A DNA stretch of 21,402 nucleotides from Promethearchaeota archaeon (GTDB lineage Archaea > Asgardarchaeota > Hermodarchaeia > Hermodarchaeales > Hermodarchaeaceae). The stretch lies in assembly GCA_048938385.1 (NCBI GenBank), contig JBHLMG010000031.1:1-21402 (forward strand), in the 5' to 3' direction. Of the stretch, positions 6,939 to 14,096 are shown one piece after another; the stretch's first letter is position 1; each line of letters starts with the position of its first letter. A program made the position numbers and the translations under genes. Below the pieces are notes generated by a model. That model was not told where the DNA came from, did no database searches, and saw nothing but the letters and a program-made list of their open reading frames with translations.

Positions 6939-7222
6939 TTTTCACCTTTTTTGGGCTTTGCCTCTTCTTCGACATGAATCGCAAAATCAGGGCATAAGGC
7001 TTCGCAGAGTTCGCAGCCAACGCATCGATCAATGTTGGTTGCAACGGGGGGATAGTAGCCTTTGGAATTGAATTTGGTAGATTGTTCTAAGACTTCGCGG
7101 GGGCAGAAGGTGTAGCAGAAGCCACAGCCTTTACACCACTCCTCGTTCACGACGATTCGCCACTTCGTGTTGGAATCCTCCTGTGGTACAATCGGTACTC
7201 GTTCCTGCCTCGTCAACATCAC
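6935..7222 (-). CDS. korD: 2-oxoacid:ferredoxin oxidoreductase delta subunit (2x[4Fe-4S])
   Basis: CKGCGFC...CP and CVGCELCEALCPDFAI; N-x-KGY motif; overlaps hdrB and korA. Confidence 0.92.
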   Translation of the reverse strand: MMLTRQERVPIVPQEDSNTKWRIVVNEEWCKGCGFCYTFCPREVLEQSTKFNSKGYYPPVATNIDRCVGCELCEALCPDFAIHVEEEAKPKKGEK

Positions 7223-8112
7223 ACGCTCATCCCAATTTTGTCAAGAAAGGAATCAGTAGGTATGTAGTGTTTATCTAACCCCATCTGTTTGGGTGTAAAG
7301 CCTTGGGCAAGTCCCAGTAGCTGGGTATAGTACAGAACCGGAATTTGGAAGTTGGCCCCTAGCTCCTTGTTGACTTGCATCTGCCCCAGGTCAAACTGAA
7401 GGTGGCAGAAATTGCACACATTCACCAGGGCATCAACTTTAGCGTCTTGCATTGCTTGGAGCTTCTCACGGACCATATCCAAGGAGACATTGAGCTCGGC
7501 GGATCGGAGACCGCCACCAGCACCACAGCACATGTCCTTCAACTTATAATCCACCGTGGTTCCTCCCACCAGTTCGACGAGTTCATCGACCAGGGTAAAA
7601 TCTTCAACCACACCCCAGGGTCGGATGTCACTGGGTTTGAGGAGGTGGCAACCAACATGAATGGCAAAACGGGCATTAATAGGGTGAACGATGGTTTCTT
7701 CGATGGCTTCCTTCCCAATATCGTTGTATAAGACTTCGACCAGGTGCTTAGCGGTGGCAGTACCCTTGACTTGGTGCCCTGTACCCTTCAGGATGTTGTT
7801 GACGCGTTTTCGAGTCTCAGGATCTTGAAGTTTGTGATATCCTGCGATGAGGGTGCCATAACAGCCATTGCATAGAACGAGAATGTCAAGCCCGTTTTCC
7901 TCAGAAAGAGCGATGTTCCGAGCCGTGATTGCGAGCCAAGTATCAATGTCGAAGGATTTAATGACACCAGGAGCAGGACAACAAGACGCCCCTTCCATTT
8001 CGACAAGTTCGATGCCTAACTTAGGAGCTACCAACCGTGTCGCTGCTTCGATTTGCGGAAGCCGATTAGGAATAACGCACCCCAGAAAAAGGCTGTACCT
8101 ATGAGTCTCCAT
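7219..8112 (-). CDS. hdrB: Heterodisulfide reductase subunit B (CCG domains)
   Basis: FLGC, CCPAPG, CNGC, HVGCH, CCGAGGG, CNFCHLQFD: full ligand set for two non-cubane clusters. Confidence 0.96.
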   Translation of the reverse strand: METHRYSLFLGCVIPNRLPQIEAATRLVAPKLGIELVEMEGASCCPAPGVIKSFDIDTWLAITARNIALSEENGLDILVLCNGCYGTLIAGYHKLQDPETRKRVNNILKGTGHQVKGTATAKHLVEVLYNDIGKEAIEETIVHPINARFAIHVGCHLLKPSDIRPWGVVEDFTLVDELVELVGGTTVDYKLKDMCCGAGGGLRSAELNVSLDMVREKLQAMQDAKVDALVNVCNFCHLQFDLGQMQVNKELGANFQIPVLYYTQLLGLAQGFTPKQMGLDKHYIPTDSFLDKIGMSV

Positions 8113-8659
8113 CCTCTTTTTCCTCCTTGTATCCGACTAGTTTATCAAACCCGGTTTTTTTGATAATATGTTGAATCTCTTTCACTGCCTTGGGATGAGA
8201 ATGAACAGTGGGAGGTAAGGAGGGGAGGCCTAAGTCTTCACGCATTTTACTCCATCGTTTATCGTCAATAGGAACCGCGTGACCGGTTTCGATGAGCTTA
8301 TGTGAGACGCCTTTATGCTCAGGTCTCATGTAACCAGCTTGACAAGAAAGATTACGAAGAAAAAGGATCGCCTCGGTGACATCGATTTTCCGTGGACATC
8401 GTTCAGTACAGGTTCCGCAGGTCGTACACAGCCATAATCCTGGATCAGAAAGAACCTCTTCACGAAGTCCTAACAGGGCTTTTCGAAGTAGCTGTCGTGT
8501 TCGATAAGCTGTCCGGCGTCCGGAGGGACAAGAGCCAGTACAGGTTCCGCATTGGATGCAAGCACGAATACGATCTAGCCCAGCTTTCTCCATCTCATCG
8601 GCAAGCCCGGGATCGATTTTTGCTCCATAAATTACTCGATGCTCAACCACAAAAGTCAC
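8099..8659 (-). CDS. hdrC: Heterodisulfide reductase subunit C
   Basis: CIQCGTCTGSCPSGRRT, WLCTTCGTCTERCPR, TGHAVPI; GTG start. Confidence 0.95.
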   Translation of the reverse strand: MTFVVEHRVIYGAKIDPGLADEMEKAGLDRIRACIQCGTCTGSCPSGRRTAYRTRQLLRKALLGLREEVLSDPGLWLCTTCGTCTERCPRKIDVTEAILFLRNLSCQAGYMRPEHKGVSHKLIETGHAVPIDDKRWSKMREDLGLPSLPPTVHSHPKAVKEIQHIIKKTGFDKLVGYKEEKEDGDS

Positions 8660-8810: not shown

Positions 8811-9488
8811 TTGGTCTATGGAACATTCGATTCGGTTGAAACCGTCATTATCGGCGGCTGGTTTGTCATCATCGGATACTTCTTTCTCCTGTTCATCTAC
8901 TTTCTAGCATTCCGGTTCCGTGACTCGAAGAACCCCTTTCATTTAGGGTTTGGCTTGTTCTTCCTCTTACTCGGCGTCGCGAGGGCCTTTTTCTTGGCGT
9001 GGGACTTTTACTCACCGAACCCCTTATGGTGGTTGGTAGCCACGGTAGTGTCCTGGCTAGCCATCTTTACAGTGTTCCTTGCCCTAGCGTACCAAACCAT
9101 TGAGCGCCACCTATGGCAGATCGTGTTAATTTCCTCACCACCCCTCATCATCGCCATCCTCATCGGAGCTTTTCCGATCTTTTTCTGGCCACCAGCGGTT
9201 GTTGGAGTCGTCAACATTGGTTACGCGATTTCAAATTTAGCGATACTTCCCCTCTATGTCGTCGTGTTGCCAGCAATCTTCTTCTGGATCGGCTTTCAAC
9301 TAAGAGGGCAACTGCGGACAAGTAACTTCCTCCTGGGAACCGGGTTGCTCATCTATTATGGTGGGCGTGTCGTTCAGTCTAGCCTAGCCACCTTCCTTGG
9401 AACCCTTGGTGGCATCCTTGCACCCATTCTTGTCTTCATCGCTTTAGTCCTTATTGCTGTAGGAGTGCTCCTCGAAGAACACGAATAG
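8811..9488 (+). CDS. Uncharacterised integral membrane protein with about 7 TM helices
   Basis: 225 aa, seven hydrophobic segments with short loops, no soluble domain, no Lys in the last helix. Confidence 0.85.
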   Translation: MVYGTFDSVETVIIGGWFVIIGYFFLLFIYFLAFRFRDSKNPFHLGFGLFFLLLGVARAFFLAWDFYSPNPLWWLVATVVSWLAIFTVFLALAYQTIERHLWQIVLISSPPLIIAILIGAFPIFFWPPAVVGVVNIGYAISNLAILPLYVVVLPAIFFWIGFQLRGQLRTSNFLLGTGLLIYYGGRVVQSSLATFLGTLGGILAPILVFIALVLIAVGVLLEEHE

Positions 9489-9515: not shown

Positions 9516-10109
9516 CTATTCGATGAGATCGAGCTTATTGAGCTTATACAGGAGTGCTTCAACATCGTGTTGAGGTAGCCCAACAACCTCAGCGATATCC
9601 TTCGGTGAACGCTTACCGTTACACTCCTTCGCGACATTGTATTCTTCTTCGCTAATTTGGCCGAGTTTGACCATTAAGCGAGGAAGCCCCCGTTTCAATT
9701 TGGGTGCAGGAACATCGGCTTCTCCGATGAGCCCATTATTGAGTAATTCGTTAAGTTCGGGCGTAAAGGAGAAGAACACAAGCTTCCCATCCCATTCTTT
9801 AAGGACCTCTTGGTAGCGAACAGTGAATTGGGAAATCACTTCGTCTAGCGCCCGAAGGACATGCAATCGGCTATCTTCTTTGTCGACCACCGCCGCAACG
9901 ACGATTAGGTCGCCGGCCGCATAGGTAATGTAGAACTCGCCCATCTCCACGATTCGGGCTTCACCTTTCCCTTTAGACACCATTCGGGCAAACTCCCGGA
10001 TGGCAGAAAAGAACCCCGCAACTAGCGTGGGATCGAGGTCGATTTCTCCGAATTTTTGGTCGAGGAGACAGACCCCGCTTGGGTGCATTAGATAGACCAC
10101 ATGCAGCAC
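9516..10109 (-). CDS. Longin-like domain plus C-terminal winged-helix protein
   Basis: N-terminus VYLMHPSGVCL...LVAGFFSAIREF...WDG resembles Asgard longin-like domains; C-terminus CNGKRSPKDIAEVVGL...LYKLNKLDLI is WH-like. Confidence 0.75.
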   Translation of the reverse strand: MLHVVYLMHPSGVCLLDQKFGEIDLDPTLVAGFFSAIREFARMVSKGKGEARIVEMGEFYITYAAGDLIVVAAVVDKEDSRLHVLRALDEVISQFTVRYQEVLKEWDGKLVFFSFTPELNELLNNGLIGEADVPAPKLKRGLPRLMVKLGQISEEEYNVAKECNGKRSPKDIAEVVGLPQHDVEALLYKLNKLDLIE

Positions 10110-10164: not shown

Positions 10165-10169
10165 AAAAA
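10165..10169 (-). terminator. Oligo-T tract downstream of tRNA-Leu, possible terminator
   Basis: TTTTT on the minus strand about 15 nt after the encoded CCA. Confidence 0.4.
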
Positions 10170-10201
10170 GGTAACGATAGCAAGTGGTGCGGGGGGAGGG
10201 A

Positions 10202-10228
10202 ATTTCGGACCTCGCATCGCGTGGTTCT
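10202..10228 (-). other. tRNA intron 4 (position 59/60, 27 nt)
   Basis: GAGGG-TTCG-AA|A-GA...TC-CGAA-AT|T-CCCTC; perfect BHB on the T-stem. Confidence 0.92.
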
Positions 10229-10259
10229 TTCGAACCCTCGAACCGCTGCCGGACAGGAT

Positions 10260-10281
10260 TTCTCCATCTGCCTGGTCAGAT
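10260..10281 (-). other. tRNA intron 3 (canonical position 37/38, 22 nt)
   Basis: CTCA-AG|A-TCTG..CAGA-t-GGAG-AA|A-TCCTG; relaxed BHB with an A.G mismatch. Confidence 0.9.
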
Positions 10282-10288
10282 CTTGAGT

Positions 10289-10318
10289 AACGCCGTCAAC
10301 CTGCCTTCGCAGGTGACT
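10289..10318 (-). other. tRNA intron 2 (position 30/31, 30 nt)
   Basis: GG-CGCA-GG|A-[GTCACCTGC-gaag-GCAGGTTGAC]-GGCG-TT|A-CT; BHB with one A.G mismatch in the central helix. Confidence 0.85.
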
Positions 10319-10343
10319 CCTGCGCCGTTGACCAGGCTTGGCT

Positions 10344-10365
10344 TTAGGGTCTAGCTGTGCTAGAA
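10344..10365 (-). other. tRNA intron 1 (position 8/9, 22 nt)
   Basis: GGC-GGGG-GT|T-TCTAGC-aca-GCTAGA-CCCT-AA|A-GCC forms a complete BHB; removal restores U8-A9-G10. Confidence 0.85.
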
Positions 10366-10444
10366 ACCCCCGCCGCCTAGTCTAGCGAGATGGACCTATG
10401 TACAGGCCCCCGCACGGGAGCTGTGTCAATGAATGCCGTCTGTG

Positions 10445-10454
10445 TATTTTAAAG
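10445..10454 (-). promoter_or_regulatory. Candidate TATA box for tRNA-Leu
   Basis: CTTTAAAATA on the minus strand; standard spacing puts the TSS near 10420-10425, giving a leader of about 50 nt. Confidence 0.55.
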
Positions 10455-10507
10455 ATTTGTCATGCGGGCTTTGGGATTTCTCTTCTTTGAATGGCACAAC
10501 TAAAGAC

Positions 10508-10516
10508 CTTTATATC
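10508..10516 (+). promoter_or_regulatory. Candidate TATA box for gcvH
   Basis: CTTTATATC preceded by A-rich AAAGAC, about 50 nt upstream of ATG 10566. Confidence 0.5.
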
Positions 10517-10565
10517 GGGAAAAGCGAACACGAATTTAATTAAATGCTTTGAGGCTGTTGTGACG

Positions 10566-10958
10566 ATGTCAAAGATTCCCTCAGACTTATTTTATACAAA
10601 AGAACACGAATGGGTCCGTCAAGAAAAGGACGCCATACGTGTAGGCATTACTGATTATGCCCAAGAAGAACTGCACGAAATTGTGATGGTCGAACTTCCT
10701 TCGGTGGGAACTGAAGTTAAAGTCGGTTCGATTTTTGGCACGGTCGACTCAGTGAAGGCCACCTCAGAACTCTTTTCGCCTATTTCTGGAAAGGTTGTAG
10801 AGGTTAATGATAAACTCGAGGAGGCACCAGAGCTAGTCAACAACGATCCCTACGGGGATGGATGGATGATTGTGATTCAGCCCACTAACCCGGACGAGGT
10901 TAAGGCTCTGATGAATCCTGATGATTACAAGAAGTTCCTAGCCGAACTGGTGAAATAA
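10566..10958 (+). CDS. gcvH: Glycine cleavage system H protein (lipoyl carrier)
   Basis: YTKEHEW, GITDYAQ, DSVKA lipoyl-Lys motif, VNNDPYGDGW. Start set at ATG 10566; the track's longer start spans the candidate promoter. Confidence 0.96.
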   Translation: MSKIPSDLFYTKEHEWVRQEKDAIRVGITDYAQEELHEIVMVELPSVGTEVKVGSIFGTVDSVKATSELFSPISGKVVEVNDKLEEAPELVNNDPYGDGWMIVIQPTNPDEVKALMNPDDYKKFLAELVK

Positions 10959-10987
10959 CCAGAAACCAGCGTGGTCGGTACGAGAAC

Positions 10988-10996
10988 TTTTTTAAG
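10988..10996 (+). promoter_or_regulatory. Candidate TATA box for aglB
   Basis: TTTTTTAAG about 50 nt upstream of ATG 11046, which has an AGGTGA SD. Confidence 0.45.
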
Positions 10997-11045
10997 CAGA
11001 CGGAATTATCAAGGCACCACTTGTCCTGCCAATATAGGTGACCGA

Positions 11046-14000
11046 ATGTCAGTGCGTGATTCGCTCCGGTCCATTGGATCTTTCTTACGGCGACACATCA
11101 TTGGTCCCCAGATGGAAATCTCAAAGGCCAATGTGATGGCAGCGTTCGCTTTACTGGTTATTGCAGTCATTGCCCTCATGATTCGGCTCTTGCCTATGAT
11201 TGGATTCGAAACGATGGTTCGAGCCTTCGACCCATGGTACAACTTTCGTGAAGTCGAATTCATTATCGAGAATGGCTTTCAAGCTTGGTTTGGATGGTAT
11301 GATAATACTTCCTGGGTACCTTATGGACGCAATATTCCACGATCGTCTTATCCTGGAATTCCATTCACCACAGCCTTTATGTTTCTCGCCCTTCAGAGTG
11401 TGGGAATTCAGATTGACCTGTTGACTCTCGCAGTCCTGTTCCCCGCCATCATGGGCGTGCTTGGCGTAATCGCCATGTATTTTCTAGGAGTAGAAGTCGC
11501 CTCTAAGGAGATTGGATTGTTTGCTTCCTTTTTCATGGCCATCATTCCCGCCTATACGCAACGAACAATCGCAGGATTCTTCGATAACGAAGCGATTGGT
11601 ATCGTAGCAATTATTCTTGTTCTCTTCTTCTTTCTGCGCGCCCTACGAAAGGGCTCAATTGCCTCGGCAATACTCGGTGGTCTATCCCTAGGGTATCTTT
11701 CTGCGAGTTGGAGTGTTTATTTGTACATGTTCCAGATCCTCGCAATCTTCGCACTCCTCATGATCTTAATTCGACGCTATTCGCGTCGACTTTTACTTGC
11801 CTATACCGGAGTGGTGCTCACGGGGATGGTGATTGCAGTATGCATTCCCCGTATTGGGCCTGACTTTCCCACCTCTACGACAGGATTAATCCCGTTAGGT
11901 GTTTTTGCGCTCTTATTACTTGTCGAATTTAGCCGATCCTTCCGCCTTTCCGAAATCAATCTGCCCGGGGTCATAGAAGGTTTCTCGACTCGTATTCGAC
12001 CTTATTTGGCATACATCTTTGGTGCTATGTGCGCGCTCATCGTCGTCGGTCTTGGATACCTGTTCCAGTCAGGCCTCATCATTAACCTAGGAACAGCCAC
12101 TCCGAGCACAGGAATTTTTGGAAGCCTTGCTGGTAAATTCTATACGGTTATTGATCCCCTAATTCGACAGAACGCGTTTCTCCTTGCCTCAGTAGGCGAA
12201 CACCTTCCCGCACCCTGGGCTACCTTCTGGTACAATCTCACCTTTCTTGTCCTGCTTATGCCCTTTGGATTCTACATAGCTTTTCGTCGAGAACGAGAAA
12301 CCGATATTCTCCTCATCATTTTTGCCCTGACCGCGCTTTATTTCAGCGGATCCATGATTCGATTGGTCCTGTTGCTTGCTCCCGCAGCCGCCATCCTTGG
12401 TGCCTACGGATTGATGATGGCTATCCGTCCTTTGCGCCCGATTTTCTGGCAACGCCCCATTTTAACCCGGCGTCGCCGCCGTATCACTCCACCAGCTTCA
12501 CGAAGTTACGCCACGACAGCATACCTGTTTCTCATCATCCTGCTCCTCGGTGCAACCTTTACATCACTGCAAGCCGTGGATCAAATGGGTGCGCCCGAAA
12601 TTACTCCAGGAGGACGAGATGCCAACCAAAATCCCTTTGACTTTAGAGACTATCTGGAAGCCTTTTCCTGGATGCGCTATCATACTCCCCAAGACTCGAT
12701 CTTTGTGTCTTGGTGGGATTATGGTTACTGGACTCGAGAAGTGGGAGATCGGCGAACTGTGGTGGATAATGCTACAATAAATAAAACCCAGATAGGATGG
12801 GTTGGCCGAATGTTCCTGGAAACTGATCCAGTGGAAGCTTTGCGGATATGTCAACGCTTTGGCGTGGATTACGTCTTCGTGCATTTCGGACTAGGTAGGA
12901 GCTCCTTTAGCGGTGACGAAGGGAAATGGCAGTGGATGATACGGATCGCTGGAGAAGTCTTTGGCGATGAAGTACCCCCTGAGAGCGCCTTCTGGAACGA
13001 AACCGAAGGGTGGTACAAACCAGCCTACTGGCAGACCCTCATCTACAACATGCTCTGGGTAAACTCCACGGCTATTGGAGCAGATGGTAACCGCCCCAAG
13101 GACGAAGAGGGAAACCTAGGACCAATGCCTGGGTACACCATTGAACCAGGTGGAACCATCTTCAGCCTCTTTGAACCAGTGTACTTCTCTCAGACCCAGT
13201 TGATGAAGATCTTCAAATGCAACTACACCTATCTAGAAAGCTCAATGACTTTAGGCGGTGCCAGCGCATACGCGGTCCACCAAGGCGAAACAGGCATTCG
13301 AGATCTTTCCTCAGTGGTTGTTGAGGTGAAAAACACAGGACAACATTCCTTCGTCATTGACTCGGCCGATATCGGATACTGGGATGCCCGGAACAATAGG
13401 TATTCGGTGGACACATTCTCCAATTTGTGGCTTACCACAACCACAGGAACGCTCCAAGTGGAGCCTGGCGAGACTACGATGTTGCACATACGCGCCCAGC
13501 CTTTCTTCACTGTCGGCACAGATGTAAATGTGACCGTTAAAGCCGCTGGATTTCGACCCACACTGAATGCTACCATTACAGTTCCAGTACGCTCAGCTCC
13601 TGCCTATGAGTTGAGTGCTATCACGGCCAATTCCTACGCTTATGCAAATGGCACAATCTACATTGAGCTCGAAAACACAGGTGAAGGCTATTTAGAAATC
13701 GACAAAGAAGCCACCATCGAGGATACTGACATCCCCCTTGAGGGAACCAGTGACCGCGGTCGCCTCCTCTTCAAAGGGGAACGTATCGGTTTTAGGTTAG
13801 ATGCGGCCGCGTACGGTTTATCCCTTAGTCTTGGAGAAATAATCTCGGTGAGGGTGCATTACATGAGTTTCCTTCCAACCTATTCGGGGTTGAATGTGTC
13901 ATTTTCTCTAACAGTGCAGGCAACTCCCAGCCCCTCAGTGCCCCAATCATCGGTGATTTCGGATTCGCAGGTTGAACGACTCCAGGCGGACCTTCTACCT

Positions 14001-14096
14001 GAGATTACTGGTCCTGATTATTCTATTAGGCCGTTTCCATTCACGGTTTTTGTCGAAAGTAGTGCCTTTTTCATTTTACGGCGATACGAGCCGTAA
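11046..14096 (+). CDS. aglB: Oligosaccharyltransferase AglB/STT3 with a long C-terminal extension
   Basis: FDPWYN, GFFDNE, SVGEH, WWDYG, DNAT and DEGKWQWM (DK motif); multi-TM N-terminal half. Confidence 0.95.
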   Translation: MSVRDSLRSIGSFLRRHIIGPQMEISKANVMAAFALLVIAVIALMIRLLPMIGFETMVRAFDPWYNFREVEFIIENGFQAWFGWYDNTSWVPYGRNIPRSSYPGIPFTTAFMFLALQSVGIQIDLLTLAVLFPAIMGVLGVIAMYFLGVEVASKEIGLFASFFMAIIPAYTQRTIAGFFDNEAIGIVAIILVLFFFLRALRKGSIASAILGGLSLGYLSASWSVYLYMFQILAIFALLMILIRRYSRRLLLAYTGVVLTGMVIAVCIPRIGPDFPTSTTGLIPLGVFALLLLVEFSRSFRLSEINLPGVIEGFSTRIRPYLAYIFGAMCALIVVGLGYLFQSGLIINLGTATPSTGIFGSLAGKFYTVIDPLIRQNAFLLASVGEHLPAPWATFWYNLTFLVLLMPFGFYIAFRRERETDILLIIFALTALYFSGSMIRLVLLLAPAAAILGAYGLMMAIRPLRPIFWQRPILTRRRRRITPPASRSYATTAYLFLIILLLGATFTSLQAVDQMGAPEITPGGRDANQNPFDFRDYLEAFSWMRYHTPQDSIFVSWWDYGYWTREVGDRRTVVDNATINKTQIGWVGRMFLETDPVEALRICQRFGVDYVFVHFGLGRSSFSGDEGKWQWMIRIAGEVFGDEVPPESAFWNETEGWYKPAYWQTLIYNMLWVNSTAIGADGNRPKDEEGNLGPMPGYTIEPGGTIFSLFEPVYFSQTQLMKIFKCNYTYLESSMTLGGASAYAVHQGETGIRDLSSVVVEVKNTGQHSFVIDSADIGYWDARNNRYSVDTFSNLWLTTTTGTLQVEPGETTMLHIRAQPFFTVGTDVNVTVKAAGFRPTLNATITVPVRSAPAYELSAITANSYAYANGTIYIELENTGEGYLEIDKEATIEDTDIPLEGTSDRGRLLFKGERIGFRLDAAAYGLSLSLGEIISVRVHYMSFLPTYSGLNVSFSLTVQATPSPSVPQSSVISDSQVERLQADLLPEITGPDYSIRPFPFTVFVESSAFFILRRYEP

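Follow-up and report, generated by a model that had tools for sequence, protein, structure and literature searches.

A conserved tRNA-Leu(CAA) gene, probably with four BHB-type introns, in a Hermodarchaeota-like Asgard archaeon

A tRNA-Leu(CAA) gene in five exons

The window, the whole stretch of 21,402 nucleotides analysed here, carries on its minus strand a tRNA-Leu(CAA) gene whose 5' end lies at position 10373 and whose encoded CCA ends at 10185. One of its neighbours is a gene for an AglB/STT3 oligosaccharyltransferase of 1041 aa (10971-14096, plus strand), which shares 57-73% identity with proteins from MAGs; the titles of several of these MAGs read Candidatus Hermodarchaeota or Hermodarchaeum. 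These matches indicate that the host is an Asgard archaeon of Hermodarchaeota-like affiliation and not a member of the Thermoproteales. The other recognizable neighbours encode a glycine cleavage H protein (10491-10958, plus strand) and, on the minus strand, a CCG-domain protein and a 4Fe-4S dicluster protein that form a heterodisulfide-reductase-like pair (7219-8659). The open reading frames at 8811-9488 and 9516-10109, beside the tRNA gene, gave no Pfam match.

The tRNA locus occupies 189 nt, of which 101 are intronic. It is divided into five exons of 8, 25, 7, 31 and 17 nt by four introns of 22, 30, 22 and 27 nt, which are inserted at 8/9, 30/31, 37/38 and 59/60 in standard tRNA numbering. 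Exon 1 (GCGGGGGU, 10366..10373, minus strand like all parts of the gene) covers tRNA positions 1-8 and is followed by intron 1 (10344..10365). Exon 2 (10319..10343, positions 9-30) supplies the D arm together with the 5' part of the anticodon stem; it is separated by intron 2 (10289..10318) from exon 3, a micro-exon of only 7 nt (10282..10288, positions 31-37) that reads ACUCAAG and contains the anticodon CAA. Intron 3 (10260..10281) occupies the canonical 37/38 site. Exon 4 (10229..10259, positions 38-59) provides the 3' strand of the anticodon stem, the variable arm, the 5' strand of the T stem and most of the T loop, and intron 4 (10202..10228) precedes exon 5 (10185..10201), which consists of U60, the 3' strands of the T and acceptor stems, A73 and the CCA end.

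The joined exons form an 88-nt class II tRNA, which ARAGORN identifies from position 1 to 88 as tRNA-Leu(caa). Its acceptor stem has 7 bp and its variable arm is long (a variable region of 14 nt with a 3-bp stem), and it carries the T-loop UUCGAAU, A73 and CCA; the conserved nucleotides U8, A14, G18G19, U33, G37, U54U55C56, A58 and C61 can all be read from the sequence. A first-pass annotation of this DNA had proposed exactly these exon and intron lengths and this product, ARAGORN accepts the spliced form, and the micro-exon that it had pointed out indeed holds the anticodon (ACTCAAG in the DNA, 10288-10282). As the five exons are colinear inside the 189 nt, the gene belongs to neither the split nor the permuted class of tRNA genes. 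A TATA-like box (TTTAAAAT, 10446..10453, minus strand), recognized from its sequence, lies upstream of the gene. An oligo-T run (10165..10169, minus strand), located 15 nt past the CCA and conserved in the genus, likely serves as the transcription stop. We consider it very probable that the locus is a real, conserved and probably essential four-intron tRNA-Leu(CAA) gene.

BHB motifs at the four junctions

In the rule used to score the junctions, the last two bases of the exon and of the intron are set aside, and the preceding four of the exon must pair with the preceding four of the intron; 3-nt bulges and flanking helices are further part of the rule. BHB motifs fit at all four junctions, those of introns 1 and 4 being strict and those of introns 2 and 3 having three central pairs out of a possible four in this genome. 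A flanking helix of at least 2 bp is present at every one of the junctions (outer/inner helix lengths in this genome: 3/6, 2/4, 6/0 and 5/2 for introns 1 to 4).

In the first motif, the central helix is formed by G3-G6 with CCCU of the intron and the outer helix by G-1/G1/C2 with G10-C12, such that G-1 of the leader belongs to the motif; the inner hairpin of the intron has 5-6 bp. In the fourth, U54-G57 pair with CGAA of the intron and the T stem is the outer helix. The central helix of the second motif comprises C25-G, G26-C and C27-G together with a conserved A28.G beside the 5' bulge; its outer helix has only 2 bp (G24-C32 and G23.U33), and the hairpin of intron 2 has 9 bp with one bulged U. 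The third motif pairs C32-G, U33-A and C34-G, with A35.G as its fourth position in this genome, and its outer helix is the anticodon stem, which becomes contiguous only after removal of intron 2.

The central helices of introns 1 and 4 keep all four pairs in 17/17 genomes. That of intron 2 keeps three pairs in 17/17, its fourth position being A.G in 16 genomes and A.A in one. For intron 3, scored in strict register, 10 of the 17 genomes have 4/4 central pairs and seven, including this one, have 3/4; the fourth alignment column is U (A35-U) in 10 genomes and G in seven. The intron 2 motif is thus relaxed throughout the 17 genomes and the intron 3 motif is relaxed in this genome. The four BHB-type introns of the first-pass annotation are borne out here and in the 17 orthologs, but 'flawless', the word it used for the spliced tRNA, would be too strong for the motifs, as introns 2 and 3 reach only 3/4 central pairs, with an A.G, and their motifs overlap.

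This overlap concerns C27, A28, C32 and U33, which are shared by the motifs of introns 2 and 3. Only one of the two motifs can consequently form at a time, and the 7-nt micro-exon would never be freed on both sides. This arrangement implies that cutting and joining around the anticodon micro-exon would be sequential, in an enforced order. The first and second motifs use one D-stem strand each and could coexist, and the fourth is independent of the others.

Conservation of the gene in two genera

The locus is found in 13 other genomes of the genus, at 81-88% identity, and in four genomes of the sister genus, at 70-73%. The four-intron architecture is common to 17 related genomes and is thus stable across two genera. 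In the 17-sequence alignment used for column counts, in which this genome is G000, only six of the 88 exon columns vary, as compared with 87 of the 115 intron columns. Exons 1, 3 and 5 are invariant, as are the acceptor strands; three of 25 columns vary in exon 2, all of them in the D-loop region, and three of 31 in exon 4. All 17 orthologs yield an 88-nt product and show BHB geometry at the four junctions when these are scored in spliced context.

Variation within the introns follows their predicted structure, since the hairpins of introns 1, 2 and 4, as well as the variable-arm stem, have undergone two-sided changes that preserve pairing. The hairpin of intron 1, an intron that is 34 nt long in the sister genus, shows AU<->CG and GC<->CG swaps. 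Compensatory changes occur at four pairs at least in the hairpin of intron 2, and also in the distal hairpin of intron 4. The sole compensatory change within exons is found in one relative (G016, locus L017), where a C-G pair of the variable-arm stem in exon 4 has become A-U on both sides.

In one further relative, G002, the gene occurs naturally with three introns (L012, C12:8945-9134), and GCGGGGGU is followed directly by AGCC, that is, by the predicted junction of exon 1 with exon 2. In this allele, intron 1, the 33-nt leader spacer and one of two GCGGGGG copies (see below) are missing together, and the remaining copy is in the upstream position; this looks like the result of one deletion or of a cDNA-type conversion event. 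The other three junctions can be read from a paralog within the genome studied here, the tRNA-Leu(UAA) gene at C23:187439-187546. This gene has only the 8/9 intron and is contiguous at the remaining junctions (E2-E3-E4 and E4-E5), and its 23-nt anticodon arm differs from that of the spliced tRNA-Leu(CAA) only in the first anticodon base.

A search for the micro-exon pattern with the exact exon sequences retrieved 18 of the 19 genomes of the family, the remaining one having a contig end at the locus. The same search matched none of 381 other Asgard genomes; it depends on these sequences, and the architecture itself may occur there.

Detection by tRNA finders and chance controls

None of the standard tools applied to the unspliced locus detects it, as the first-pass annotation had thought probable. 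ARAGORN reports no tRNA and Rfam gives no match at its gathering score and no tRNA match at E<=10; in the genome-wide search with the Rfam tRNA model RF00005, the locus is likewise absent from the matches.

One may wonder whether a cloverleaf was simply pieced together from unrelated sequence by the deletion of BHB-like segments, in which case the gene would be an artefact of over-fitting. BHB-like pairs are indeed common, with 36 in 279 nt (approximately 1.2 per 1000 combinations of site and length), and a first, permissive census produced hundreds of false cloverleaves with five to seven long 'introns'. Motif and cloverleaf alone are thus weak evidence. The census was tightened by limiting introns to <=70 nt, scoring the canonical intron in spliced context, filtering with ARAGORN and running the reversed genome as a control. 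This BHB-plus-cloverleaf census returned 35 loci in the whole genome, of which 32 are credible, and none in the reversed genome. The tRNA-Leu(CAA) locus has exactly one solution in this search, and the three of its junctions that are fixed exactly by the cloverleaf coincide with BHB-like pairs. The alignment also speaks against an artefact, as introns vary and exons are nearly invariant across the 17 genomes, and the orthologous loci, at 70-88% identity, are no assembly copies of one sequence. Moreover, the natural intron-less sequences described above match all four junctions. Over-fitting therefore retains next to no probability, and the locus is best read as a genuine interrupted gene. The three census solutions not counted as credible (C1:5460, C2:164623 and C25:38580) each span more than 320 nt and were treated as false.

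Transcripts and the activity of the gene

The sequence of the window, intron 3 included, is confirmed by an independent contig (X4). One further contig, of 218 nt, comes from a sediment metatranscriptome (run X20) and belongs to a close relative, with seven differences from the window. It spans 10229-10381 without gaps and contains leader, exons 1-4 and introns 1-3, all unspliced; its loose ends run into a divergent intron 4 and leader, and it ends near -35 and near exon 5. This contig could represent precursor RNA, and would then be at most a weak hint of transcription, or carry-over of DNA; it does not bear on splicing. No splice joints were seen in the contigs compared with the locus, of which this is the only one from an RNA library.

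These data could also be expected of a decaying or inactive gene, with real inserts and no working tRNA product, in which case UUG codons would be read by tRNA-Leu(UAA). The missing junction reads, the unspliced state of the sole RNA-library contig and the two relaxed BHB motifs can all be cited in favour of such a scenario. It is opposed by purifying selection, across two genera, on the five exons, the central helices and the pairing of the hairpins, and by the retention of the encoded CCA, the TATA-like box and the oligo-T run. Furthermore, none of the genomes yielded a CAA isoacceptor other than this gene. We consequently judge decay to be quite improbable and retain the reading of a working tRNA gene.

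In DNA run X1, several co-occurring strains from one sediment sample differ from the window at 10202-10312 almost only inside introns 2, 3 and 4, with length differences of 1 nt in intron 3.

A leader copy of the acceptor 5' strand

At -40 to -34, the 5' leader of the gene exactly repeats the acceptor 5' strand (GCGGGGG, 10407..10413, minus strand). The spacer between the two copies (10374..10406, minus strand) varies in sequence and forms, just past the upstream copy, a hairpin (CCU-loop-AGG here) whose helix has been kept by one- or two-sided changes. None of the seven columns of the copy varies among the 17 genomes, as compared with 48 of the 54 flanking leader columns.

Among the 32 credible tRNA genes of the census, such copies are present in the leaders of all three genes with an 8/9 intron and in none of the 29 others. 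The three genes are those for Leu(CAA), Leu(UAA) and His(GUG), and each copies its own, different acceptor strand, which excludes a generic promoter element. Apart from the gene in the window, the leader-copy loci of the genome are at C23:187439-187546 and C23:261810-261962. Intron and copy also come and go together. For tRNA-Leu(CAA), both are present in 17 genomes and neither in G002; for tRNA-His, both are present in 13 genomes and neither in three genomes of the sister genus. Moreover, a C-to-U change in the tRNA-His copy preserves pairing with the 3' strand.

In RNAalifold and partition-function folding, the copy pairs with the acceptor 3' strand (P 0.91-0.99), and the G run of exon 1 is then free for pairing with the intron; when the leader is omitted, the acceptor stem forms instead. 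The copy follows the TATA-like box at a distance of 32 nt, equal to that between TATA and tRNA start in the G002 allele without intron 1.

This spacing, which matches that of a normal tRNA start, the single copy in upstream position in G002 and the RNAalifold preference for the upstream copy over exon 1 as partner of the acceptor 3' strand raise the question of whether the upstream GCGGGGG could be the true exon 1, the stretch up to the end of intron 1 then being one large or nested (fifth) intron. However, position 8 of such a tRNA would lack the universal U, since the upstream copy is followed by A or C and the intron ends in A, C or T; the downstream copy alone gives an invariant U8. We consider this reading very improbable and place exon 1 at 10366..10373. 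A separate fifth intron between the two GCGGGGG copies was also considered and rejected, as corresponding positions of the two are not connected by any BHB; the closest candidate has a helix that is not conserved and would leave the product one G short.

With exon 1 placed downstream, the role of the upstream copy can be considered on the basis of its conservation, its co-occurrence with 8/9 introns and the thermodynamic folding. Our tentative proposal, which we hold with somewhat less than even confidence, is that introns at 8/9 may depend on a dedicated cis element, namely this leader-encoded exact copy of the acceptor 5' strand. The main rival is that the copy has no role in splicing and is a footprint of the arrival of the 8/9 intron by local duplication, or is kept for some other reason, for example transcription start. 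A footprint fits the co-occurrence, since copy and intron would be gained and lost together in a single insertion or deletion event, but it does not fit the invariance. A neutral copy should decay like the surrounding leader, and the pairing-preserving change in tRNA-His would also be unexpected. We regard this rival as a serious possibility, if a slightly more doubtful one than a cis element acting in splicing. The leader copy bears on the splicing of acceptor-proximal introns and on the way in which tRNA introns arrive. If our proposal is true, the copy would be a previously undescribed pre-tRNA processing element, and the association would be either a rule for where 8/9 introns persist or a footprint of their arrival.

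Proposed processing and enzymes

A scheme that accommodates these observations would start from a single functional tRNA-Leu(CAA) gene transcribed into one precursor of approximately 240 nt, with its start approximately 10 nt upstream of -40. The introns at 8/9, 30/31, 37/38 and 59/60 would be cut at their BHB motifs by a two-subunit EndA and the exons joined by RtcB; RNase P would then remove the leader, leaving the 88-nt class II tRNA with its encoded CCA. The first motif would need G3-G6 of exon 1, for which it competes with the acceptor stem. By taking the acceptor 3' strand, the leader GCGGGGG may free exon 1 for the motif, and could in addition tether the 8-nt 5' exon to the body of the molecule until ligation. 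We hold the core of this explanation (a single gene with four BHB introns, spliced by EndA and RtcB) to be highly likely.

The genome encodes an EndA that resembles the catalytic subunit of the Aeropyrum heterotetramer (3p1z_B, E 6e-46). A second EndA, a paralog with 28% identity to the first, shows no catalytic His in pairwise alignment and matches the structural subunits 3p1z_A and NEQ261, its best match being the M. jannaschii homotetramer 1a79. The two EndA genes are located at C23:325049-325303 and C23:190407-190667. From these similarities, the enzyme is putatively assigned to the two-subunit type. Of the EndA types, (alpha-beta)2 is one of two that are reported to cut non-canonical introns (PMC5829648). 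RtcB is encoded at C23:204997-206307. The gene for the His-less EndA paralog sits in a cluster of seven tRNA genes (Pro, Thr, Leu UAA, Met, Thr, Tyr and Asp; C23:185600-192000), with the RtcB gene 13 kb further on.

Relation to known interrupted tRNA genes

Pairing of outside sequences within RNA precursors has precedents in archaea. The split tRNA halves of Nanoarchaeum equitans are held together by complementary leader and trailer sequences, and archaeal rRNA precursors form leader-trailer processing stems. The present case would resemble both in that sequence outside the mature RNA pairs within the precursor, presenting a BHB to EndA or holding pieces together. It differs from both in that the 5' leader contains an exact cis copy of the gene's own acceptor 5' strand, which is predicted to take the place of exon 1 within the acceptor helix and not to build the BHB. 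Outside archaea, a study of the red alga Cyanidioschyzon merolae reportedly found a tRNA gene interrupted at non-canonical positions by several BHB-like introns; these are said to lie in a eukaryotic nuclear genome and to be often combined with a permuted gene order.

In Thermoproteales, tRNA genes carry a maximum of three introns (PMC4033280). Their likeness to the present gene extends to intron sites such as 59/60, to the (alpha-beta)2 EndA of broad specificity and to the encoded CCA, which is common there (Sugahara et al. 2007, 2008; PMC4033280). They differ in belonging to another phylum and in having three introns at most, as compared with four here, where a 7-nt micro-exon moreover lies between overlapping motifs.

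The closest parallels are in other Asgard archaea. Asgard genomes in which 92-95% of the tRNA genes contain introns, with several introns per gene, were described in 2024 (PMC11291895), and a preprint of October 2026 reported up to five intervening sequences in one Asgard tRNA gene and found that annotators miss about 30% (10.64898/2026.10.13.758758). The first-pass annotation had suggested that four introns exceed the commonly cited maximum. This stands for the Thermoproteales limit of three; it falls for the actual host, an Asgard archaeon, as up to five have already been reported in that group.

The gene described here shares with the published cases (PMC11291895; 10.64898/2026.10.13.758758) an Asgard host, several short introns per gene and junctions that fit BHB motifs. 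The published introns have a median of about 22 nt, occur at non-canonical sites including the D arm and the T arm, and are often missed by annotators. The focal families of those studies are Freyrarchaeaceae, Jordiarchaeaceae and Atabeyarchaeaceae, and 'Hermod' is absent from the main text of the preprint. The intron load is also different, with approximately 1.1 introns per tRNA gene here, a lower bound, versus 2.2 in the published Asgard families. Heavily interrupted tRNA genes were thus already known in Asgard archaea, and our analysis extends them to a further, Hermodarchaeota-like lineage.

The leader copy is mentioned in neither PMC11291895 nor 10.64898/2026.10.13.758758, the latter, a census preprint, not using the word 'leader', and our literature search returned no relevant description of such an element. 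As far as this search reached, the leader copy and the overlapping motifs at the micro-exon are new.

The tRNA set of the genome

The genome is a 2.48-Mb MAG, 89.8% complete. RF00005 detects 22 tRNAs above its cut-off and the BHB census 32 credible genes, further ones being present only in the ARAGORN list. The census is a lower bound because it requires an intact GTTCRA in the T loop. This difference of 22 versus 32 agrees with the earlier suggestion that genes of this kind account for tRNAs that seem to be missing. Since both ARAGORN and Rfam draw a blank at the present locus, 'missing' isoacceptors in such MAGs are no proof of absence. By intron number, the 32 genes comprise 10 with none, 13 with one, six with two, two with three (Gln UUG and His GUG) and one with four, the tRNA-Leu(CAA) gene.

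Five Leu isoacceptors were found, each of them once. A second Leu(CAA) gene was not found in this MAG, which at approximately 90% completeness may leave a copy unassembled. ARAGORN does name another 'tRNA-Leu(caa)', with an intron at 33/34, at C35:23852-23958. We rejected this candidate, a class I tRNA of 75 nt in which the intron is misplaced. Its loop reads CUCACA before the insert, which makes Val(CAC) with a canonical intron the probable identity, and the locus is a mis-annotation trap. The 3' CCA is encoded in 30 of the 32 census genes, the exceptions being Leu GAG and Leu UAA, which read CCT.
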